This document shows, one piece after another, positions 13,505 to 50,694 of a stretch of DNA of 64,000 nt. Position 1 is the first letter of the stretch, and each line of letters begins with the position of its first letter. The notes under the pieces are model-generated. The model saw only the letters and a program-made list of their open reading frames with translations, was not told the DNA's origin and ran no database searches. The position numbers were made by a program, and so were the translations under genes. This stretch comes from Squalus acanthias (taxonomy: Eukaryota): positions 103,602,001 through 103,666,000 of the forward strand of contig CM059432.1 in assembly GCA_030390025.1 (NCBI GenBank). The letters are read 5' to 3'.

Positions 13505-15618
13505 TAACACAAGAACAAATGAACAGGGTAAGACTGTAAAAAAGCAGTGGCAAACATTTAAGGAGATATTTCATAACTCTCAGTAAAGATATATTCCAGT
13601 GAGAAAGAAAGACTAAGAGAAGGATGAACCATCCATGGCTAACTAAGGAAGTAAAGGATGGTATCAAATTGAAAACAAAAGCATACAATGTTGTGAAGAA
13701 TAGTGAAAGGCCAGAGGATTGGAAAAAATTTTAAAAACCAGCAAAGGAAAATTAAAAAAATGATAAAGAGAGAGAAGATAGCTTATGAAAGTAAGCTAGC
13801 AAGAAATATAAAAACAGACAGTAAGAGCTTCTACAGGTATATAAAAAGGAAGAGAGTAGCTAAAGTAAGCGTTGGTCCCCTAGAGGATGAGTCTGGGGAA
13901 TTAATAATGGGAAACAGGGAAATGGCGGAGACTTTGAATAAATATTTTGTATCGGTCTTCACAGTAGAAGACACTAAAAGCATCCCAATAATGGATAATC
14001 ATGGGACTATTGGGGTGGGGGGTGGGAACTTAAAACAATCACCATCACTAGAGAGAAAGTACCAGGCAAACTAATTGAACTAAAGGTGGACAAGTCCCCT
14101 GGACCTGATGGCCTGCATCCTAGAGTCTTAAAAGAGGTGGCTGCAGAGATAGTGGATGCATTGGTTGTAATCTACCAAAATTCCCTGGATTCTGGAGAGG
14201 TCTCAGCGGACTGGAAAACCGCAAATGTAACACCCCTATTTAAGAAAGGAGGGAGACAGAAAGCAGGCAACTATCGACCAGTTAGCATAACATCTATCAT
14301 TGGGAAAGTGCTGGAGTCCATCATTAAGGAAGTGATAGCAGGACATTTAGAAAATCATAATATAGTCAAGCAGAGTCAGCATGGTTTTATGAAAGGGAAA
14401 TCATGTTTGACAAATTTGCTGGAGTTCTTTGAGGATGTAACGAGCAGGGTGGATAAAGGGGAACCAGAAGATGTGTATTTGGATTTCCAGAAGGCATTCG
14501 ATAAGGTGCCACATAAAAGGTTACTACACAAGATAAGAGCTCACGGGGTTGGGGGTAATATATTAGCATTGATGGAGGATTGGCTAACTAACAGAAAACA
14601 GAGAGTCGGGATAAATGGGTCATTTTCAGGTTGGCAAACTGTAACTAGTGGGGTGCTGCAGGGATCAGTGCTGGGGCCTCAAATATTTACAATCTATATT
14701 AATGACTTGGATGAAGGGACCGAGTGTAATGTAGCCAAATTTGCTGATGATACAAAGATAGGTGGGACAGCAAATTGTGTGGAGGACACAAAGAATCTCC
14801 AAAGGGATATAGATAGGCTAAGTGAGTGGGCAAAAATCTGGCAGATAGAGGATAATGTGGGAAAAATAAAAAGCAAATTATTATTTAAATGGGGAGAGAT
14901 TACAAAATGCTGAGGTACAGAGGGATCTGGGGGTCCTTGTACATGAATCACAAAAAGTTAGCATGCAGGTACAGCAAGTAATTAGGAAGGCAAATGAAAT
15001 GTTGGCCTTTATTGCAAAGGGAATAGAATATAAAAGCAGGGAAGTCCTGTTACAACTGTACAGGGCATTGGTGAGACCACACCTGGAGTACTGCATACAG
15101 TTTTGGTCTCCTTATTTAAGGAAGGATATACTTGCATTAGAGGCAGTTCAGAGAAGGTTCACGAGGTTGATTCTGGAGATTAAGGGGTTGTCTTATGAAG
15201 AAAGGTTGGGCCTATACTCATTGGAGTTTAGAAGAATGAGAGGTGATCTTATTGAAACATAAAAGATTCTGAAAGGGCTTGACAGGGTTGATGCAGAGAG
15301 GATGTTTCCCCTCATGGGGGAATCTAGAACTGGGGGGCATAATTTCCAGAATAAGAGGAAACCCTTTTACATCGGAAATTAGGAGGAATTTCTTCTCTCA
15401 GAGGATCGTGAATCTTTGGAATTCTCTTCCCCAGAGAGCTGTGGAGGCTGGGTCATTGAATATATTTAAGGCGGAGATAGACAGATTTTTGAACGATAAG
15501 GGAGTCAAGGGTTATGGGGAGTGGGCAGGGAAGTGGAGTTGAGGCCAAGATCAGATCAGCCATGATCTTATTGAATGGCGGAGCAGACTCGAGGGGTAAA
15601 ATGACCTACTCCTGCTCC
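13505..15618 (+). mobile_element. CR1 LINE, 5'-truncated, frameshifted ORF2 (RT)
   Basis: ORFs 13703-14074, 14086-14913 (KSPGPDG, LDFQKAFDKVPH, QGSVLGP, FADD), 14963-15262 and 15279-15542. Confidence 0.95.
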
Positions 15619-32348: not shown

Positions 32349-34660
32349 ACATACATAGATACATAGATACATAGAAGATAGGAGCAGGAGTAGGCCATCC
32401 GGCCCTTCGAGCCTGCTCTGCCATTTAATGAGATCATGGCTGATCCTCCAATTCAGTATCCCGTCCCCGCCTTCTCTCCGTAACCCTTAACCCTTTTGCC
32501 TGTAGAAATATATCTAATTCCCTCTTAAATATATTTAATGAGCTGGCGTACACTGCCCTCTGTGGCAATGAGTTCCACAGGTTCACCACCCTCTGAGTGA
32601 AGAAATTCCCCCTCATTTCTGTCCTAAATGGTTTAGCCCTTATCTTTAAATTATGTCCTCTAGTTCTGTTCTCACCCGCCAAGGGAAACATTCCTTCTGC
32701 ATCTAGTCTGTCTAGACCTGTCAGAATTTTATACACTTCTATGAGGTCCCCTCTCAATCTTCTAAACTCCAGTGTGTACATCCCTAAACTACATAGTCTC
32801 TCCTCATAGGTCAATCCCGCCATTCCTGGTATCAGCCTGGTGAATCGCCGCTGCACCCCCTCCATGGCAAGAACATCTTTCCTCAGATGAGGCGACCAAA
32901 ACTGTACACAGTACTCGAGGTGTGGTCTCACCAGTGCCCTGTACAGCTGCAGCAAGGTATCCTTGTTCCTGTATTCCAACCCTTTTGCTATGAAGGCCAG
33001 CATACCGTTTGCCTTCTTGACCGCCTGTTGCACCTGCATGCTCGCCTTCAGTGACTGGTGTACAAGAACACCCAGGTCTCTCTGTACTTCCCCCTCTCCC
33101 AATTTATTGCCATTTAAATAATAATTTGCCCTCCCGTTCCTGCACCCAAGGTGGATAACTTCGCACTTGTCCACATTATAGTGCATCTGCCATTTATCCG
33201 CCCAATCACCCAGTCTGTCCAAATCGCTCTGGAGCTTCCTGGTCTCCTCCTCTGAGCCCACCCCCCCTCCTAGTTTAGTGTCGTCTGCAAATTTGGAAAT
33301 GCTGCATCCGACTCCCTGATCCAGGTCATTAATGTAAATTGTGAACAGCTGGGGACCCAGGACAGATCCCTGCGGTACCCCACTTGTTACTGCCTGCCAT
33401 TCAGAAAATGAGCCGTTTATTCCAACTCTCTGTTTTCTATCTGACAGCCAGTTCTCTATCCACGTCAATACTTTCCCCTTTATCCCATGAGCTTCAATTT
33501 TCCCTGCTAATCTTTTATGTGGGACCTTATCGAAGGCCTTTTGGAAGTCCAGGTACACCACATCTACTGGCTCTCCCCCATCTATTTTACCAGTTACTCC
33601 CTCAAAAAATTCCAATAGATTAGTCAAGCACGATTTACCCTTTGTAAATCCATGTTGACTCTGTCCTATCCTGTCCCCATTTGCTAAGTGCTCCGCTATT
33701 TCATCCTTAATGATGGACTCCAGCATTTTGCCCACAACTGATGTAAGGCTTACAGGTCTGTAATTACCTGCTTTTTCCCTACCCCCCTTTTTGAATAGTG
33801 GGGTAACGTTAGCTACCCTCCAATCCATGGGCACTGTTCCCGAGTCTAATGAATTCTGAAAAATCATACTTAGTGCATCCGCTATCTCTAGGGCCACCTC
33901 CTTCAGCACCCTAGGATGCATGTTATCAGGCCCTGGGGATTTGTCCGCCTTCAATCCCTTTAGCTTCCTTAACACCATATCCTTAGAGATATTGATTTGC
34001 GTCAGTTCCTCCTTTGCAAATGTCCCTATTTTTCCCGATATCCCAGGGAGGTTTTTTGTGTCTTCCTTCGTAAAGACTGACCCAAAGTATGCATTTAGTT
34101 GGTCTGCCATTTCCTTATTTCCCGTTATATATTCCCCCGTATCTGACTGCAATGGGCCAACTTTGGTTTTCACCAGTCTTTTCCTCTTGATATACTTATA
34201 AAAGCTTTTGGAGTTAGTTTTTATATTTTCCGCCAGCTTGCTTTCGTAAGCTATTTTGCCCCTCTTGATTAAGCCCTTTGTCCTCCTTTGCTCTATCTTA
34301 AACTGTTCCCAATCTTCCACTCTGGCACTTTTTTTGGCTATTTTATACGCCCTATCTTTGGATTTTATGCTGTCTCTAATTTCCCCTGTTATCCACGGTT
34401 GAGTCACCTTTTTAGATTTCCTTTTATGCCAGATTGGTATAAACAATTTTTGCAATTTTGTCATTCTATCTTTAAATGCTTGCCATTGTTTATCTACCTC
34501 CAGTCCTCCCAGGAACGTTGTCCAATCAGACCTACTCAGTTCCCGTCTAATGGCATCATAATTCCCCTTGTTTAAATTCAGGACCTTAGTATCTGAGTCA
34601 ATTTCTTCGCTCTCCATTTCGAGTGAGAAATCGATCATGTTATGATCGCTCTGACCCAAG
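32349..34660 (-). mobile_element. Young CR1 LINE, 5'-truncated, uninterrupted ORF2 RT region, (CTATGTAT)n tail
   Basis: 751-aa ORF from the endonuclease-end SDH motif through RT (QGSVLGP, FADD); octamer tail at ~32351-32374. Confidence 0.97.
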
Positions 34661-35244
34661 TAATGAAGAGTAGAAATAAAGAAATCCAAGCAGAGGTGAT
34701 CATATTCTATTTCATCATATGAAAATTACTATATCCAAAATAACTGCAGTGAAAATGAAAATCTACTTATAGTTTATCACTTAATTGCCTACATCACATC
34801 ATGCATTTCATAATGAGTTGAACAATACACCAATTTAATAAAAAGGGTTTTTTTCCCCACTTATGTTAAATATCCTCAATAATTCCTTGTACGCTTAAGT
34901 CACAACCTCCAGGAGGGCATAAGGAACAATATCTTCCCTGTTGAGGTTAATGATTTCTCCCCCATTAGTAATGAGGTATATTTAATTATATTGATACATT
35001 GGTACAGTAGGGGGGCATCAAAGGAAGTCTCTGCTCCTCTCCTCTCCCTTCCACTGCTTTCAAAATCTTAGCTTCACCTGATCTTTCACATACATATCAG
35101 AAGTCCCCTAGGTTGCTGTAACATGTTATTTATAACAGCTTGTGTTTTAAGGTTACAAAATTTAGAGAATAATCACTATAGCAATTATTGGCTTACATTT
35201 TCTAACTGCAATCAAAACAGGTCATGCCATCATTATAAGTAGTT

Positions 35245-36640
35245 AAGAATTAGGAGCAGGATTGGCCATACGGCCCCTCGAGCCTGTTCCGCCATTCAAT
35301 AAGATCATGGCTGATCTTCGACCTCAACTCCACTTTCCCGCCCAATCCCCATATCCTTTGATTCCCATAGAGTCCAAAAATCTATCTATCTCAGCCTTGA
35401 ATATGCTCAATGATTCAGCATCCACAGCCCTTTGGGGTAGAGAATTCCAAAGATTCACAACCCTCTGAGTGAAGAAATTCCTCCTCATCTCAGTCTTAAA
35501 TGGCTGTCCCCTTATCCTGAGACTATGCCCCCTAGTTCTAGACTCTCCAGCCAGCGGAAACAACCTCTCAGCATCCAACCTATCAATCCCCCTCAGAACC
35601 TTATATGTTTCAATGAGGTCACCTCTCATTCTTATAAACTCCGGAGAGTATAGGCCCAATCTACTCAATCTCTCATCCCAGGAATCAATCGAGTGAACCT
35701 TCATTGCACCACCTCTAAGGCAAGTATATCCTTCCTTATGTAAGGAGACCAAAACTGTGCACAGTACTCCAGGTGTGGTCTCACCAAAGCCCCGTACAAT
35801 TGTAGCAAGACTTCCTTACTCTTGCTCTCCAACCCCCTTGCAATAAAGGCCAACATGCCATTTGCCTTCCTAATTGCTTGCTGTACCTGTATGTAATCTC
35901 TCTGTGTTTCTTGTACTAGGACACCTAAATCTCGCTGAACACCAACACTTAATAGTTTCTCAGCATTTAAAAAGTATCCTGTTTTTTCTATTCTTCCTAC
36001 CAAAGTGAATAACCTCACATTTCCCCACATTATACTCCATCTGCCACCTTAATGCCCACTCACTTAACAAGTCTATATCCCTTTGTAGGCTCTTGTGTCC
36101 TCCTCACAGCTTACTCTCCCACCTAGCTTTGTATCATCAGCAAACTTGGATACATTACACACGGTCCCTTCATCTAAGTCGTTAATATAGATTTTAAATA
36201 GCTGAGGCCCAAGCACTGATCCTTGCGGCACAACACTAGTTACAGCCTGCCAACCTGAAAATGACCCATTTATCCCTGTCTGTTTTCTGTCCGTTAACCA
36301 ATCCACTATCCATGCTAATACATTACCCCAACCCCATGAGCCCTTTTCTTGCAATAACAACTTTTTATGTGGTACCTTATCGCATGCCTTTTGACAATCC
36401 AAATATACTACATCCACTGATTCCCCTTTATCTAACCTGCTAATTAGATCCTCAAAAAACTCTAATAAATTTGTCAAACACCATTTCCCTTTCATAAAAC
36501 CATGTTGACTCTGCCTAATCATATTATGATTCTCTAAGTTCCCAGTTACCACTTCCTTAATAATGGATTCCAGCATTTTCCTGACAACTAATTTCAGGTT
36601 ACCTGGCCTGTAGTTCCCTGTTTTCTCTTTCCTTCCTGCC
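35245..36640 (-). mobile_element. CR1 LINE, degraded ORF2
   Basis: Three frameshifted RT ORFs: 36073-36756, 35701-36030, 35324-35752. Confidence 0.95.
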
Positions 36641-36924
36641 TTGAATTTGATTAGCATTAAAATTGTGACAAGTATTGCAACATCATGCCTTTGGGTTATT
36701 CCATCCCTTTTTTTAAAAAACAGCAATGACGTGTCCCTTAATTTTACAAGGTACATTTTATTCCTTCCCTATGCCAGTTAATTAAAGTGTGATACAGGGC
36801 CACTCTCCCTTTCGGTGGAAAGAATAATTCAGGAGGAGGAGCACAGCAACAGCAAATGAGATCTTATGATGGGCGTCTTGAATTATTGAATGATCCAACC
36901 TGCTCAGATCATCGCTTAATTCTT

Positions 36925-39670: not shown

Positions 39671-41654
39671 CTGCAAAAACGTAAACAAAAGACAAATGTG
39701 TTTTCCATTTCAGCTTGTGAGGTTAACAATAATATGAGTTTCCCAGAAAGTACCATTTCCATTGTTTTTTTAAAGGATATTGCATGACGCCAAGACAGTT
39801 TTAATATCTATGGCAAGTTGTAATTTGGTAATATTTTCAGCACACTGTCGCGATCAAGGTCCATTGGTTTATGGTGTTTACTTACCCAAGTTATCAATTA
39901 TGTCTATTATTTAGTTATTTCAGTACATCAAAATGCCCAGTGATTTTTCCTGTTACTCAGGATCGGTTTACCATTGTTGATACGGAATCAAAAATAGAAG
40001 TGTGGTAATAGTTTTACAGCTTGAGTAGGAAGTGGGGAGCGAAATGGCAGTAAACAGATTCTTTTTTAGTCCAAGTGTCTTCATTTTTACATTAACCCTT
40101 TCAATGCCACTAGAGACACCAGTTTGCAACTGTACTTTGGCTAGTTCAGAAAAACCTAATGCAAGGATCTCGTGGGGATACAACAGAAGTGGCCAGAATG
40201 AATGTAACTACTTAGTCATAGCAGGGAGGAAAATCATTGTGAAATGTGCCTCCAACTCAATTTCTGCAGCGAAACTTACATTTTATCTTGTTACCCATTT
40301 CACGGTTTCTAAATATTCCAATTCTCTAAGGTTGATTTTTTTGGTTGTGTACGTTTGATGTAAATGTTGAGATGTCATAAATGAGGCCTTTTTCCCTGCC
40401 ACTTCCTCATTTTAAACTGAAACTGGCTTCTCTCGCCATCTGAAATTTTCCGCAGGCAAGATACATCTTCCTGAGATCACTGCTTCTATTCGAAGTTATT
40501 CCTGATTTCCAACATAGGTTAAAATAGATGGTCAACAATCCAAGGAAGCCTCTGAGCCTCTCTTTGGGCTTAGGGAAATAGCTGTAAGACTGGCTAAAAG
40601 GTGTCAATAAAACGGCACGAAAAAAAAATAGCTCCAGAACAAAAAGATAATTGCCTCAAAAAAGTGTTTAGTAACAAAGGAACTCCTCGTTAATCTTTCG
40701 GAATTTTAAGTATTTTTCAGTTATTACAACGTCCTGCCAGTTTCCACATGTGGCCGTACAATGGAGTAAAAGTGTCCAAGAGCTGGTAAATTGCTCCGAA
40801 GAACTGTAATAGCCAAAATACACCAAAGATTCAGAGAGAAAAATCCTCAGCAAAAACAATGTGTTTCTCTTAACTGACAATTGTGCCCGTTGGACACAAC
40901 TATAAATTATCATGCTGAAAGATTAAATTCGGTTTCTTTTTAAAAGTGTCATCAGCAGCCTGTTTACAACAGTGAATCCTGATGTGAACATTCAAAGGCA
41001 ACTCCAGACAAATTGATATTAAAATGAATTAATTAAGCGGAGACAGCTTTTCATTAAGAGTAATGGATTCAAATTGTGTTTATGTTGTCTGATCCGTTTA
41101 GCAGCGACCTTCCGACCGATTTGCAAACAGTATAGTCAGTAAATAAATTACTGCAATAAAAAGTAAATGGCTTTTAAATGAAAATGATCAGGATATATAC
41201 CAATTAGCAAAATTCAAATCGGTGGAGATATGCTCGCAGTTAATTGCAGATTTCAATATACACTAACCGCTCGGCTAAAAGGAAGGTATTCTTACAGGGG
41301 GATTGTTCAGCTACAGTGAACCAATGGCGTGAAATGAATGGAAAATCCAAACCATTCATATTATTGTTGGATTGTGTTATCGTGTGCAATATATCTGTGG
41401 AAAAAAGACTAAATACAGTGGTGCCATATATGATCATCTCTAATAGGATCATCACCACAATGGTTTTTTTCAATGTGCCTCAAATAATTATTTAAAATGC
41501 AATTTAATTTACTGATGATTTTCCTCCCTGTGGAGGATTATTTTTCTATTATGTTCCTTATAATGATGTAGGCCCTGTCAGGGTTTTATCTGTACCACTT
41601 CTGACTGCAATACCAAGTACTGGATCCGATGGGAGCAGCTGGGCAGATACCTAC

Positions 41655-42590
41655 ATGTACATCGTAGGTTCCATTTAACATGGTGGGTCGCTGAGGACTC
41701 AGATCCTGTAACATCCCAGTAAGCAAGCCTGCGTTTCGGCTCAGTTTCTGAAAGTCTTTGGACTGGGAGAACTGCACCATGTTATGTAATGCCAGGATTT
41801 TGGTGTCCAGATCAGCATCTTGGCGGGTACGGTTGTGCAGACCGAGGTGGTATTTGCGAAAATGCTTGATCAAATCGGTTGGGTCGTTCCCATAATAGCC
41901 ATAACCACAAATGTTGCATTTGAAGTCTTGTAGTTCTGGAGTCAGGGGCGCCGCGTCTGGGTTGTCAGTCAGCTGTTCTGTTTTTGATTTATCAAGTGCA
42001 ACACTTCCATCTGAAAGCACCTGAGAGTTGTCTGAAGGCACCGAGCCTGGGGTTGAAGTGTGATGATCAGGTGGGTCACCCTGTAGCAGCTGGGCCTTCT
42101 CACGCCCACTTTTAGGTGACGTTTGAGCTGTGTGGTTTAATTCCGAGAGGTTCCCAGATACATTGCAGCTCCTGCCATCGCCATCATCTGGTTCTGATCT
42201 GCAAGGAGACTTCCAGGCCTCGCAGACTCCAGCAGCAGCCTGAGATGAGAGAGCAGACATATTTCTGTCTGTCACCTCATCTTGCGGGAAGGATGGAACA
42301 TTTCCTCCCTTCTTGTGGCTTTCATAATTGAAGCCATTCCCTTCGCCCAGTGCGGGGCTTTTCAAGTCGCTTTTGATGCCGGCTAGGTCTGCGACACGCA
42401 GACAGTGTTCCTCCTTGTTGACTGACTCTAGTGCATCTTGTTGGTTGTTTTGTTCCTGCATGGGATCCGGGGGTCCTGAGCTTTTAGCAGCCTCCTGGTT
42501 CACGGCACTTTCTGGCTGAGGGACCTGGCAATTCTCACCTTCCCCTTGGCTCACAAGATTTCTCAATGGTGGATTCTTTTTCCGGACCAT
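41655..42590 (-). CDS. TRPS1: TRPS1 first coding exon (human exon 3 equivalent), 312 codons, C2H2 finger 1
   Basis: [11 protein letters not shown]...[41 protein letters not shown] matches TRPS1. Acceptor TTGCACAG|AT-ATG (exon starts 42592); phase-0 donor CAT|GTAGGT at 41655. Confidence 0.97.
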
Positions 42591-45500
42591 ATCTGTGCAA
42601 AAGAAATATGTCTCTTTAGGATCATTTTCACATTTTCTAGTTTGGAAAGACTATCCCTTCTATGGTTAAACTTTTAACAGTGTAGGGTCGGCTTTCCTAT
42701 ACCTAGATTAATATTTCTGTCATACTTAAAGTATATTTCCATCCCTCCTTTAGCTCTGCTCCAGTTCCATCCGAATAGTTTTCTTTTAAAAGTTATTAAC
42801 GCTTTTGTTGTGGTTATTTACATACTTTTGCAGTGATGTATTTATGGACAGTCCCGCCCAAGTTTACACAGATGAATCCATTGTCGCATTTCAACATAAG
42901 AGAAGATGACAGGGGAAGCGAGTTCTTAGGGAAACATCACTGCATCTTTCAAGGACCAACAATCAAGCTTACACCACATCTGTTTTACTTTCTTTAAGTC
43001 TCCTTGTGAAAATTGTAATTGCAGTATCATATATATTATATATCGTATGTGTGTGTGTATATACACTACACTTCAATGGATATATACGTATATATAGCAT
43101 ATTTTAAAAAATTGTCACGGCAATGAAGTAATCAGTTACATTTTTAAGCAAGTTCCTATCGGTAGAAGTACTGGGAGAATGGCGTTCTAACATTTTCGTT
43201 TCAACTAATTAAAGCAGAATGACAGCTACAATAAGAAAGTCTGCGACCATGTTTATCCCAGTAGAATACTTTACAGCAGTTCAAACTATATTTCTAAAGA
43301 ACTTAAAAAGATTGCCCTTTCGACAAAAAGTAAACCAAAATTCTGTGGGTGACTGATGGGCAGGGATTGTTTGTTACGAATGGACCCGTTAATCATTGTG
43401 CTCCGAATAGTATTTGTTTTCTTTTAAGAAGATGAACAGCTTTACCTCATTGCTTTATTAACTTCACATGACGGCATTTTTGTTTGTTTCAAATTAATTA
43501 ATAAAACCGACAGGGTAATTTATACAATACGATTGACTGTAAGTTGGATTTAAATCCCTTTCCCCGGCCACTACTGCCTATTCAGTGGCAATAACTATGG
43601 TAACTAGTAGTTAACATGTACCAGGTACCGTACGTATTTTATTAAATCAGTGGAACTTGTGCATAACACCATTCTCCATTCCGAAAAGGCAGGGACAGTG
43701 TAGATTCTAGATGGCTGCTTAAAAGTAATCAACAGGTTTAAATAAAGAGTCAGTGTTGGCTGGGCCTACCTTTTTAAAAGTGATCTGACGTGGATTTCAA
43801 CGTGCTGCCCTCCCTGGCGTGCACTATTTTTGATGCAGATTCCTAGCACTGATGATATATTTTGTTAACGCTGAGAAAGGTTTACCAACCCAGGAAAAAA
43901 ATCGTCAGCAACAAAAAGCCAGCCAGTGATTATTCTATATTACGTGTCCTGACAATAAGCCAGAAACTGCAAATAAAATGGGTAACTCGGTAAAGCACAG
44001 CCTTGGAAGAACGTCACAGATCATCCGCTTGAATAAGTTTTATTAGATGAACTGTGACTACCGCAGCACAAAAAGTTTCCCAAGATTTCAAAAGGCGAGT
44101 CCCCGTGAGCTTGGACGGTTGCTTAACGAACACTTCAAATAATTAAGTAATCTTTCTTTCCAATATTCCACCACACGTTCTGCTCCTCTGCTGATCCCAA
44201 AATTTGTATATTCCACAACTTTCAAGCGTCTCTTATTTATGTTGGTGCCAATAAAGCTCCCCAGATGGCCTAACTTGAGCGAATATTCACTTTAATAGTG
44301 TGTACAGCCAGGAACTGATGTTGTAGACTGAAAGTCAACAGGTTTAGAATGACAGCCAGACTATTTAAATGGAAATTTACACCGTTTCGAGTCAAAACAA
44401 CCGACTTTTTCCGCTTTAATACCAATAATTCAATCACCAAGAACGGCCCTTAACTTTTGACACTCCATGCTCACTTTATATTTTGTCGTACTATATGAAT
44501 TTACTGTCATTACAACCCTGTCGGTGTTTAAATATATAGTCAGATCCACATATATCCATTCAGACGTATATGCACATTGCTGGTTTGGCCCTATAAGCAA
44601 ACCTTTACCAAGTCCCAAATTGCTTCTGGCCTGATCACCGCTGGTATAACCAGTCATATGGTCACAGTATAAACAACCATAATGTGCACTGCAATTAAGT
44701 GCGCACAACACGATTCCTCTCCATGATGCACAAATATTACTAATATTAATATATATGCACACACGTGCGCTATTAAAAAGAGCTTGTGGCAATTTACTGT
44801 ATCTTTTAGTAGGGGAATTCACTCGTAATTATGAATTATATAAAATATGTAAAAATATAATATGTGATAATAACCCTTGATGCTAGATGTAAACATTTCT
44901 CAGCTGTCCCTGCGACAAACAATAAAAGGAAGAGTTAGACTGGGGTCAGTGGATCAAGTAAATTGTATTCCCCCCACCCTTGAAAAAAATATTTTTTCAA
45001 CTACTGTATTTCGATATTTCAGCCCCTTCATTGTGGCTTCATTTATATTATTGCAACGCTGAGGGGCTGCTTAAGTAGAATACAGATCTCAGCAATAAAT
45101 CAATACAAGTTTTTGTTCATTCCACACACGCCAGATTGGCCCAGCGATGCCTGCATTCATTATCTGATCAAGCACTGTATAAACTTGTCATTAATCATAA
45201 CATCAAATTACACAATATTCCTTATAGCAGAATTATTATTGCAAGCTAACCCACCTATCTATTCCTGCTGCCAACAATACCACACACCACTGCTGTAATG
45301 TGCTCAAGCGTAATTGGGAATTTGCTATTGAGACCTTTGTTTTGCTCCTCAAATGAAAGCTCAGCCAGGAGAAGTGATCACGTCTGGGAGACAAGAATCG
45401 TTAATCAACACGTGCTAGGAACTCGACTGAACAACTGCTTTCCGCAACATTTCCTGTGATAAGGACACAAAGACTTGCAAAGAGATCAGACTTCAATAGG

Positions 45501-45999
45501 CTTATAGTTCATGTGAATGCAAACGTGACATTCACTTTACACAGTATTCCGAACAGTCCGGGCCCATTCAAGGGAGTGGACACTTTTCTCAAGCCAGTTT
45601 CACAAAGTTCCCAATACAACCGAAAGCTTTAAATCGACACCAGCATCGGCCTCCATTAAATCGTACCATGGCATATTGTGTAAAACTTCTACCAGATATC
45701 AACGTTTTCACGTCAGTGCTAAACACTCTGATGAGTTATTTTACCGGATTAGCCCTGCTGTTCATATGTGCCATGTATACTTTGTAACTCTGAGTGACAA
45801 AACTCATTTGGAGTGGCTTCGTTAAGTGATTACATCTGCAGTCCTTGTTAGACACAATAGTTACTCTCATCAAATGCCTTCAGAAAGTGCACGAGTGGAA
45901 ATATTAACTCCCAGCAAAGTTCAGTCCAACTCCCCGATTAACCGAAAACTGTGCAAATCCTGTATTAAACAGGATTCCAAGGCTCAAAAACATCGTAAC

Positions 46000-48700
46000 T
46001 AGTACTTGGGGAAAAGTAAACAGTAAAAGTTTCACGCACTTCCAACTTTATCGCAATTTAGAGAGCAGCAGCTGATAAACCATTGCCTGAAAATCTGGCG
46101 GGGGGGGGGGGTGGGGTGGGGGAGGGAGGAAATACTACAATTTTATTTACCCGCACCTAGGACGAATAAGTACAAGTCAAAACAAGAGTGAGATGTGTCA
46201 AAGTTGTAGTGAGATGAAACGCACCAGCAATCACAAGAAGCTTTTAACAGATCTCGCCGACTACATCCAGCCCCGATCAGCAGGAAACATTTTAATAGCA
46301 CTTTTAAGCGACACGTCCTAAACTAACTGCCATAATAAGTCATGTTTTACTGGTGCCACATTTTACTGAGTGTGGATAAGAAAACGCAAACGGCCCATTC
46401 TGCCCGTGTCAGCCAACCCAGCCCTTTAAGTCAAAAGCTACAATTACTTATGTCTGTACTTTCAAAGCTTTACTTGGCATTGCATCAGGAGATAAAAACT
46501 GAAAGTCCCTGTCTGGAGAAGTTAAACCACCGGAGGATGATGTCTAGCCACATAAACAGACGCAACTCAACTCAGCGCACACACACACACACACACACTT
46601 TTAACACAACTTTTAAAAAAGTTTACTCCAACCATGTTACTCCCGGGTCCCGCCAGATGGGCCGCAAAGGACTCGCCACTGTCGGAAAAACTGGAGGAGT
46701 GTGGGGCGAGGGGGGGTGGGGAGTGAGATTTCTATTCTCGTAGATCTTAAATATATATATATATATATGTATCTATATATACCGCTTAATCTGGAGAAAT
46801 GGAAATGAAATAGTCCACTCAGATGCATTTCATCGTGTTGCCTCGGCCACGTCACTCACAAACTTTCTTGGCGCTGCAGATACATTCAGAACGAGATTTC
46901 TCACTCTGACATCTCTAACTGAAAGACACTTTTAACGCCATCCATTTCTTTTACTCCCACTTTCCCGCTAAGTAGCCAGCACAACAACAAAAAAGGCGAA
47001 ACCCGGAGAATATCCCAAACGTACTTGAAATCATCGTTTCCTCTGGTAAACTTGACCCTAAAGGCTACTGGAGGCTACTGTCACGTACGAGGAACCATTT
47101 CTCATGCCTGCTCGAGTGACCTCCCGACCCAACAAATACGGGAAATGGGGATGTATGTGAAATCTGAGAAGTCTGCCTCTTTCTTTCGAAAAAAAACGCG
47201 AAGAGATCTCCTGTTGACTGAACAAAACTGAAAGCATTACCTTAATAAATACAAATATCTAAAGCCAGCGAGCTATTGCTGCCCTCCTACACACACACAC
47301 ACACACACACAGTCTGTGCGAAGAGAATTTTAAAAATCGGTAAGAGATCTTTGTTCCTTTAATCTCGGGGCTGGTTTTCGCCCACACACACTCTCTCCCT
47401 CTCTTACCTGTTGATTTGATGGTAATAATCTTTGCAGCTCGAAAGATGGTGGAGCTTTGGTGAGAGCCATGAACCGTCTGAGTTTTTTTGCAGAGTGAGA
47501 TTTTGGAGAGAGAGAGAGAGGCAGACAGACAGAGAGAGAGAGAAAGGAGAGGGGAAGGCGCGGGTTGAGCCGGTTGTTCAAACGCGCTGCCTGTGTCTGT
47601 CTGACGGGAGGTTCTGTATGTAGTGCGTGTGTGTGTCTGTGTGTGTGTTTAATATGTCTGAGAGAAAGGGGCTCTGGCTCAATCCGGCCTTTATCACAAA
47701 TGTTATCGCTTGTCAGGACCCCGACTTCAGGCATTACGTCATTTGCAAGACACCATTCAGCGCTAATACAAACAGCGGACATGCCTTTGCCTTCGCGCCG
47801 CCCCACAACACACATACACACCAGCAATCGTCTGCGATCATCGCCATCGGGCCTCCTCTCTCTCTCTCTCTTTACACAGAAAGCAGCCTTCCCGGGAAAT
47901 GCTTGTTTGCTTTTCTGTTTGGTTTGCTCTTTCTTTCCCCCCCTCTCTCTCCGAAAAGGGGAAGGGGGCGCCGCACTTTCTTTTTAAGCTGGGGGAAAAA
48001 AAGACTCAGGCTCACAGTAGAAAGGAATAGAGCTGGGCGCTCTTGCAGCGAGAGAGCTGTTGGCGGGTTATCTGTGTGGAAATCACGTCTGAACAGTTGC
48101 TCATGGGGAAGATCTTGGCCACAAGAAAAGGAGCATTGTTCTCAACTTAAGCTTTTACCTTTTTTCTCTCCCTCCTTTCGCTGAGCTGATTAACTTTTTT
48201 TAATTCAGTGTAAACGCAGCTTTAAAAAAAATCTCCTTTACATGAATTTTAATTGGGAAGGCCAAGTACTCAATATTTGCATCTTAATTATTTAGGTGTA
48301 AATTTGAGCCCGTTTAAAGCAACTTCTGTTTAGATAACTTATACACCGTCCCCTTTTACTATTTTGCCTCTAAGAGCTTCATCTCCCGGAGGTACAAGTT
48401 AGTTTGTTTGTTTTCTCTCTATCAGAAGTCGAAATGATCTTATCAGGGTCTGTGTGTGCTGCGATATCCCAGTAACTCCTCGTTGCCCGGAGTAACGTGA
48501 TTACAGAGTTACAGACTCGCCGCTTTCCAGTTGCTGCCCTGCAGTGACAGCAGCCTCACTGAGTGTTGTGCTGGCGAGACAGTCGGTGTCTGTACCTCAG
48601 TTTGTGTCCGTGTGCAGCATCGGGTCTGTATTACAGGCTTTTTCCTTCTGATGTCATGCAGGGCACACCAGGCTTTCTTTCACACTTCTAATCTTTAACA
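46000..48700 (-). promoter_or_regulatory. TRPS1 promoter / CpG-rich region with GA, CA and TA microsatellites
   Basis: CpG-dense and surrounds exon 1. GATA-like sites at 47691-47696 and 47702-47708, TTACGTCA at 47734-47741, ATTTGCA at 47741-47747. Confidence 0.7.
47408..47760 (-). other. TRPS1: TRPS1 first (5' UTR) exon; 5' boundary approximate
   Basis: Strong donor CAG|GTAAGAG at 47408/47407. Minus-strand blocks CTTGCAAATGACGTAATG..GTCCTGACAAGCGATAACATTTGTGATAAAG and AGACGGTTCATGGCT..CCACCATCTTTCG..AATCAACAG resemble human TRPS1 exon 1 as recalled. Confidence 0.75.
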
Positions 48701-49637
48701 AAAATACCCATTACAAAAGGTGACTCCACTAAATTTAGTTTTAAATATTTTAAAAAAAATTCTTGCAGAACCCAGCTTTCTGTGATATTTTAATCATTTC
48801 ACTTCATCTGTAGAAAGTCTCAAACCGGTATTTGCAGTCAAGTAAAAATAACTTTTTTTTCCGAGAAGGAGAAGTAGCTCCTATTGGACTATGGCGTGGC
48901 GTGTTCCTCTTTTCCTTTCAGGATGTTAATCCTTCTCAGGAAGACGCTGTCACCTGGAAGTCCTGGAGGTGTTTGAAGCCGATCTGCATACACTGCTGCC
49001 AGCGACGCCCTGAATCTGCCCACGCCCTATATTGCTTTCTTTTCAACGATTCCCAACATTTTCTCTTCGATTTTAAAGGTGATTTATCTTCCTTTATGAA
49101 TAAACTTTCTGTTTCTCTTCACTCACTCTTGAATAATATTTAATTCGATTTGTAGCTCATCCTCCAAGTTTTCCTTTCTTGCTCATTGTCTTTCTGCTAA
49201 TTATCAGTGGGCAAATTCAGGCTTGCTTAGAACGGGAAGCAAATCTGAGCTGACTGCGGTTAAAGAACTCTATGCAAATACATGTGACATGAAATTTGCT
49301 GAGTCAGTTGTTTAAAACATATACGCCCTTTATAAAGAGAATGTTTTAGTCGAAATCAAACTAAAGGATTAAACTAAAATGTGAAGGTTACGTCATTGTC
49401 ACATCTGAAGTTGATTAGTAGATCAAAGGTTTGAGTATATTAGAGAGCATCAACAAAATTCTTCAGTTTTAACGATCGTATTTAACTCCGGGAGGAATCT
49501 ATGAGATTTTCTTGCAATATTAAATATGACCTGTGTGAGAAGTATTGACCTTATGGGTAGGGTAGTAAAGCGTTAAGCTTGTGGACTATTTGCCTTCTAA
49601 AGTTTTTCACAGAAATTCAGAATGGATAATCCCAGTT

Positions 49638-50559
49638 TAGAAACATAGAAACATAGAAGATAGGAGTAGGAGTAGGCCATTCGGCCCCTCGAGCCTGCTC
49701 CGCCATTCAATGCGATCATGGCTGATCATCCAAATTCAGTACCCTGTCCCTGCTTTCTCCCCATATCCCTTGATCCCCTTAGCCTTAAGAAATATATCTA
49801 ACTCCTTCTTGAATATATTTAATGAATTGGCCTCAACTGCCTTCTGTGGTAGAGAATTCCACAGGTTCACCACTCTCTGGGTGAAGAAATTCCTCCTCAT
49901 CTCAGTCCTAAATGGCTTACCCCTTATCCTTAGACTGTGACCCCTGGTTCTGGACTCCCCCGCCATCGGGAACAGCCTTCCTGCATCTAGTCTGTCTAGT
50001 CCTGTTAGAATTTTATAAGTTTCAATGAGAGCCCCTCTCATTCTTCTAAACTCTAGCGAATATAAACCTAATCGACCCAATCTCTCTTCATATGTCATTC
50101 CTGCCATCCCAGGTATCAGTCTGGTGAATCTTCGCTGCACTCCCTCCATGGCAAGAACATCCTTCCTCAGATAAGGCGACCAAAACTGCACACAATACTC
50201 AAGGTGTGGTCTCACCAAGGCCCTGTACAACTGCAGCAAGACATCCTTGCTCCTGTACTCGAATCCTCTCGCTATGAAGGCCAACATACCATTTGCCTTC
50301 TTAACCGCCTGCTGCACCTGCATGCTTACCTTCAGCGACTGGTGCACAAGGACACCCAGGTCTCGTTGCACTTCCCCTTTTCCCAATCTATTGCCATTCA
50401 GATAATAATCTGCCTTCCTGTTTTTGCCACCAAAGTGGATAACCTCGCATTTATCCACATTATACTGCATCTGCCATGCATCTGCCCAATCACCCAACCT
50501 GTCCAAATCATACTGGAGTTTCTCTGCATCCTCCTCACAGCACACACGCCCACCCAGTT
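49638..50559 (-). mobile_element. Young CR1 LINE 3' fragment, (CTATGTTT)n tail
   Basis: Intact 269-aa ORF2 C-terminus; CCCAGTT at both junctions (49631-49637 and 50553-50559). Confidence 0.95.
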
Positions 50560-50694
50560 GATTGTAGTGTTGGTAGTGATGGGTTTTTTGGATTAAAAGT
50601 GAATTATTTAAACTCCTTTATTGCAGCTGACAAATGGTGGAAAAAAGGCTATGCGTAGATACAAGTAAACGTGATCACAGATGAAAGACCAGGA

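Follow-up and report, generated by a model that had tools for sequence, protein, structure and literature searches.

In both a shark and human, the end of TRPS1 exon 1 carries an upstream ORF (uORF) that exits the exon without meeting a stop codon, so that the next exon decides where the frame ends. We lean toward the view that the exon joined next sets the end of this uORF in both lineages and, by doing so, probably tunes the output of TRPS1 protein. TRPS I is caused by TRPS1 haploinsufficiency (PMC6913153), which bears out the preliminary description of this DNA on that point, and elements that set TRPS1 translation could therefore matter in disease. The human uORF has already been catalogued and the logic of the switch is known from PAX6; what is added here is its evolutionary depth, reaching to shark, and its dependence on splicing.

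Upstream ATG and open frame at the end of exon 1

The window, by which we mean the whole 64-kb stretch of DNA analysed, holds the 5' part of TRPS1 of a cartilaginous fish on the minus strand, with coding exons at 42590–41646, 39676–38495 and 37921–37235. The first large coding exon (41653..42592, −), from which spliced contigs of runs X3, X5 and X18 run on into the next coding exon, shows 82–91% identity to 15 chondrichthyan proteins and 55–62% identity to the remaining 105 of the 120 protein matches listed. The main start codon (42588..42590, −; MVRKK), placed by sequence and protein matches, lies 2 nt past the acceptor and has G at both −3 and +4 after splicing, the strong context that had been described for it.

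Exon 1 ends with a splice donor (GTAAGA, 47402..47407, −) that agrees with the consensus at 8 of 9 positions and is used in a RefSeq model of Heterodontus TRPS1 (P0137). From an ATG at 47470 (−), whose context is weak (T at −3, G at +4), a stop-free frame of 63 nt, or 21 codons, runs in phase 0 to this donor (47408..47470, −; CAG/GTAAGA, after 47408); the human counterpart has 22 codons and the same phase. When exon 1 is joined directly to the acceptor at 42592, the uORF is read in frame +1 of the coding exon (42563..42592, −) as far as a TGA at 42565–42563, giving a 30-aa product and a 28-nt overlap with the main ORF at its ATG (42590). The coordinates, the phase, the 30-aa product and the stop were all reproduced from the sequence as first described. 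A form in which exon 1 is spliced to exon 3 would have an out-of-frame 5'UTR AUG with no stop ahead of the main start, namely the layout of an overlapping uORF, and this layout is lost when a further exon, ending at 43770 and described below, is included.

The uORF frame is open from 47983 (−) and contains three further ATGs at 47815, 47782 and 47734 (47734..47815, −), which would give products of 145, 134 and 118 aa if transcription starts upstream of them and may catch ribosomes first; a contig of run X1 spans 47656–47896. The genome has a single copy of the exon-1 end, no Rfam family was found in 42500–49000, and no unusual folding was detected for 47408–47500 (z −0.70).

A protein of 118–145 aa starting at these upstream ATGs was considered and dismissed: the 47734 ATG does not keep its frame in Heterodontus, where it differs across the microsatellites. 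P0137 starts at the matching ATG in the main frame and the same ATG sits in the uORF frame in the Squalus window, so the frame of this far ATG drifts between sharks. Protein searches gave no matches with a 125-aa query from the exon-1 frame (126 candidates), with residues 1–106 of P0137 (97 candidates; P0137, not being a cluster representative, is missing from its own search) or, at E ≤ 0.001, with a 136-aa query against 1.84 billion representatives; a 21-aa match is too short to score in such searches.

As a separate observation, one frame of exon 1 (47408–47815, −) runs through CA and CT microsatellites without a stop over more than 130 codons. A change in microsatellite length switches the frame of the 47734 ATG, which lies in the overlapping frame here and opens an in-frame 106-aa extension in the Heterodontus model. 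Repeat polymorphism in exon 1 could alter the TRPS1 leader.

Human counterpart of the uORF

The GENCODE Ribo-seq ORF c8riboseqorf92 in TRPS1 is of the uORF biotype, starts at an ATG and encodes 43 aa, with 66 nt in exon 1 (phase 0) and 66 nt in exon 2 (PMC10032668). The human exon-1 peptide that the preliminary description had given agrees letter for letter with the first 22 residues of this entry, and in phase. The human copy lies wholly upstream of the main start and is translated according to Ribo-seq (PMC10032668), as in the layout of a regulatory AUG uORF; these Ribo-seq data support the start on the form that joins exons 1 and 2. Human exon 2 holds 121 nt of 5'UTR (PMC6913153), so the uORF closes 55 nt ahead of the first in-frame ATG, and, since c8riboseqorf92 closes in exon 2, the catalogued human form is non-overlapping. 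Its PhyloCSF scores are −30.42 in primates and −259.49 in mammals and the number of MS studies is 0, while it is classed as 'conserved', a class defined by amino-acid similarity across non-primate mammals that comprises 758 of the 7,264 ORFs and about 4–5% of uORFs (PMC10032668).

The human and shark uORFs share the gene, the position at the end of exon 1, the ATG start, the phase-0 donor and a similar run of the first 21–22 codons. Judged from these sequence features, c8riboseqorf92 is likely the ortholog of the shark uORF. The form of its identifier presumably denotes an ORF detected in at least two studies. The catalogue entry differs from the shark uORF in that it represents the closed 43-aa form and gives neither an overlapping form nor evidence outside mammals.

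The exon-1 part of the uORF measures 63 nt in shark and 66 nt in human, both in phase 0, and the peptides, aligned by eye with a one-codon gap, are identical in 14 of 22 columns. Despite changes in the remaining 8 columns, the ATG is kept, the frame stays open in the same phase, and the difference in length is one whole codon. The earlier proposal of conservation from shark to human held for the upstream ATG, the frame open to the exon end and phase 0; the catalogued human uORF has its stop in exon 2. The upstream ATG was compared in two distant lineages, shark and human; that of Heterodontus was inferred from protein, which is compatible with it.

Exons that may follow or replace exon 1

A total of 240 TRPS1 proteins was fetched and 11 fragments were dropped, leaving 229 N-termini with a recognisable start region. 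The direct junction of 47408 with 42592 is present in one of them, the predicted model P0137, whose 106-aa extension is a main-frame reading of exon 1 (E 2.7e-50 to 47639–47409) that continues at the same acceptor. Among the 52 chondrichthyan N-termini, 26 have no extension. Twenty-two sequencing runs are listed, none on record as RNA; eight were examined as contigs, of which two gave no contig and two gave stray intronic pieces only. Neither the 47408→42592 joint nor a 47025→42592 joint occurs in the contigs of these eight runs; as the contigs are filtered, neither missing joint is proof of absence.

A 5'UTR exon that had been overlooked (43770..43966, −) was revealed by one contig of run X18, in which 43770 is joined to 42592 with GT..AG borders (depth 11.6, with 166 nt in the shorter arm). 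The contig differs at 5 of 1,106 aligned bases and represents RNA of a close relative; it runs on into the next coding exon and hence derives from spliced RNA. The 3' end of the exon is given by this joint, and the 5' end would lie at one of two candidate acceptors, 43966 or 43948. The contig stops at 43935, short of any upstream partner, where its end looks to us like library adapter. Its covered part (43935–43770) contains no ATG, and each of its three frames is interrupted by stops (4, 3 and 1). In the predicted joints of exon 1 to the candidate acceptors, the uORF would be 29 or 23 aa long and end 172 nt ahead of the main ATG. A second X18 contig (43916–44250) crosses both acceptors unspliced, and no joint of exon 1 to exon 2 was seen in the filtered contigs of the eight runs. 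A weak extra joint, 45335→44909 (44909..45335, −; one contig, depth 2.9, with 30 nt in the shorter arm), suggests further 5'UTR exons inside intron 1.

The extension encoded by amniote exon 2 was found in 90 of the 229 N-termini. It has no tblastn match in intron 1 of the shark gene and occurs in none of the 52 chondrichthyan N-termini, and homology between the shark and amniote second exons is therefore unsupported. Unlike the amniote exon, the shark exon has no ATG, and similarity between the two is not detectable.

Another way to begin the protein would be provided by the end of an alternative 5' exon, or of a longer exon 1, at 47025..47034 (−; donor GTACGT). An ATG at 47034 and a donor after 47025 give M-I-S-N in frame with TRPS1 (M-I-S-N-MVRKK). 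A start of the form M-x-[S/G]-N is present in 40 of the 229 N-termini, from chimaera, sharks, rays, sturgeon, paddlefish, gar, caecilians, reptiles, birds and mammals. If this exon is a separate first exon, the upstream ATG is absent; should it instead be a longer exon 1, the uORF would end after 46 aa. For the short M-x-D extensions of other sharks, no matching donor was found within intron 1.

Chance expectation and constraint

When the last 93 and the last 150 nt of exon 1 were each shuffled 20,000 times, 28% and 30% of the shuffles, respectively, contained one or more out-of-frame overlapping ATGs, so an overlap is ordinary within one species. Of the 2,388 ATGs in the window, 835 are followed by 20 open codons. 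Over the uORF stretch, Heterodontus P0137 has 20 of 22 main-frame residues identical and no indel, and two exon-1 blocks upstream of the uORF are identical at 30 of 31 and 23 of 24 residues. Exon 1 is conserved as a whole, with the uORF no better than its flanks, which weakens any claim of special constraint on the uORF; from these alignments, conservation of the ATG may ride on a conserved non-coding exon. Similarity of the peptide over a long evolutionary distance is seen both between shark and human and in the mammalian 'conserved' class, while coding-type constraint above the surroundings is not, given the negative PhyloCSF and the equally conserved Heterodontus flanks.

A proposed splice-dependent uORF and its alternatives

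The preliminary description had proposed that the choice of 5' exon alters the fate of the uORF, and this is upheld by the sequence, P0137 and the X18 joint, which together provide for overlap, closure or bypass. In the mechanism we propose, the upstream AUG frame leaves exon 1 without a stop and its end would be set by the next exon joined. Closed uORFs permit re-initiation and overlapping uORFs repress more strongly (PMC7617937). When exon 1 is followed by a stop-bearing second exon, giving 43 aa in human and, through the putative joint, 23 or 29 aa in shark, a mild brake is predicted, because re-initiation stays possible. When the coding exon follows exon 1 with no exon between them, as in the shark RefSeq model, the 28-nt overlap would prevent ribosomes that start upstream from re-initiating at the main ATG. 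TRPS1 would then be made only through leaky scanning past the weak upstream AUG (T at −3), and for these two reasons a stronger brake is predicted. The exon encoding M-x-S-N would bring its own in-frame ATG, so that the uORF would be bypassed or closed. We infer from these arrangements three levels of TRPS1 translation set by exon choice, in which translation itself, and not the peptide, is likely what matters. We take it that a human transcript joining exon 1 to exon 3 exists. Skipping of exon 2 has been reported in human blood RNA and attributed to the lowly expressed NM_001282902, whose first exon is unnamed there (PMC6913153).

A real, if doubtful, possibility is that the uORF is a by-product, with exon 1 strongly conserved as a promoter or 5'UTR element that carries the ATG and its open frame along, little translated owing to the weak context and of little effect on TRPS1. 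Exon 1 outside the uORF is indeed equally or better conserved, PhyloCSF is negative, overlap by chance is common, the 47734 ATG changes frame from one shark to another, and overlap with non-coding sequence that is itself conserved is a recognised confounder. Overlapping ORFs are found in 15.0% of human MANE 5'UTRs, in a class that counts in-frame extensions (PMC11057154). This explanation sits less easily with a shark–human length gap of exactly one codon, with 8 of 22 columns changed without a stop or a shift of phase, and with the pick-up of the human copy by Ribo-seq; we prefer a uORF whose effect depends on splicing. The preliminary description went further in treating the overlapping form as the default. 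As the default conserved state and the main dosage brake of TRPS1, that form is improbable: the human uORF is catalogued as closing in exon 2, and the sole RNA joint detected at the acceptor, in a close relative, comes from the stop-bearing exon ending at 43770. The layout does yield an overlap, P0137 carries the direct junction, and the 26 of 52 unextended chondrichthyan N-termini are compatible with it, but an ATG-free exon gives an unextended N-terminus equally.

The description had also raised the idea that the uORF encodes a micropeptide. The uORF is unlikely to do so in view of the negative PhyloCSF (−30.42 and −259.49), the absence of MS detections (0 studies) and the dependence of the C-terminal part on the exon used (23, 29, 30, 43 or 46 aa); the longer frame, moreover, has no protein relatives. 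What speaks for a peptide is the identity of 14 of 22 columns between shark and human, counted by eye, and the classification as conserved by amino-acid similarity in mammals, and one of the two Heterodontus changes inferred is synonymous in the uORF frame, a sample of two that is uninformative. We regard it as very improbable that the uORF makes a functional micropeptide or that its peptide stalls ribosomes by virtue of its sequence. Returning to the splice-dependent uORF, a broader picture is speculative and on present evidence rather unlikely to hold: from the jawed-vertebrate ancestor onward, one open-ended TRPS1 uORF would have served as a three-position dial (closed, overlapping or bypassed), which sharks and amniotes close by different second exons, possibly gained independently.

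Relation to known systems

The nearest parallel is PAX6, in which skipping of exon 3 is thought to turn a 5'UTR uORF into an overlapping uORF (PMC7617937; 10.64898/2025.12.07.692584). In PAX6, as in TRPS1, the uORF starts in one exon and stops in a skippable exon, skipping leads to overlap with the main start, and the gene encodes a haploinsufficient developmental transcription factor. The PAX6 switch has been described in disease variants, whereas that of TRPS1 would be a putative natural choice of isoform; in addition, the skipped exon of amniote TRPS1 also holds an in-frame ATG, unlike that of PAX6. The native overlapping uORF of THPO and the stop-loss of an NF1 uORF resemble TRPS1 in that output hinges on closure before the main start (PMC7617937), but those cases are point variants and that of TRPS1 would be a matter of exon choice. 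If the switch is true, TRPS1 would be a natural and very old case of the conversion from uORF to overlap known from PAX6 disease alleles. In human, non-coding variants that abolish the uORF stop or skip exon 2 would then be predicted to lower TRPS1 protein, and variants that abolish the upstream AUG to raise it. If the three-position dial is true, such variants would shift TRPS1 dosage and could account for TRPS without a coding change, and the dial would give a means of raising expression.

Literature searches found no study of a TRPS1 uORF, although the supplements of PMC13275300 and PMC7530721 and of two preprints may list the ORF. The main texts of PMC11057154, PMC7530721 and 10.64898/2025.12.07.692584 do not mention TRPS1, and it is absent from one supplement of PMC11998461.

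Other features of the window

Upstream of exon 1, the stretch 48372–48516 (−) is similar (E 3e-11) to an N-terminal extension of 70 aa in a TRPS1 model from Hemitrygon (P0151), and a contig of run X1 spans 48351–48615, over the matching stretch. It is possible that 48372–48516 (−) is a further upstream first exon. In Narcine, a TRPS1 model (P0166) has a 42-aa extension that matches weakly to retrotransposon fragments of the window at 50080–50148 (−) and 32817–32864 (E 0.003 and 0.42, respectively), which suggests that the 5' exon of this model may be repeat-derived.

No exon for the TRPS1 coding sequence past about residue 943 maps within positions 1–37200 of the window, so the next TRPS1 intron is longer than 37 kb. 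A stop-free frame of 763 aa at 32434–34725 (−) resembles a non-LTR retrotransposon reverse transcriptase, presumably CR1-like, and decayed retrotransposon copies lie at 13999–15262 (+), 35324–36768 (−) and 49736–50617 (−).
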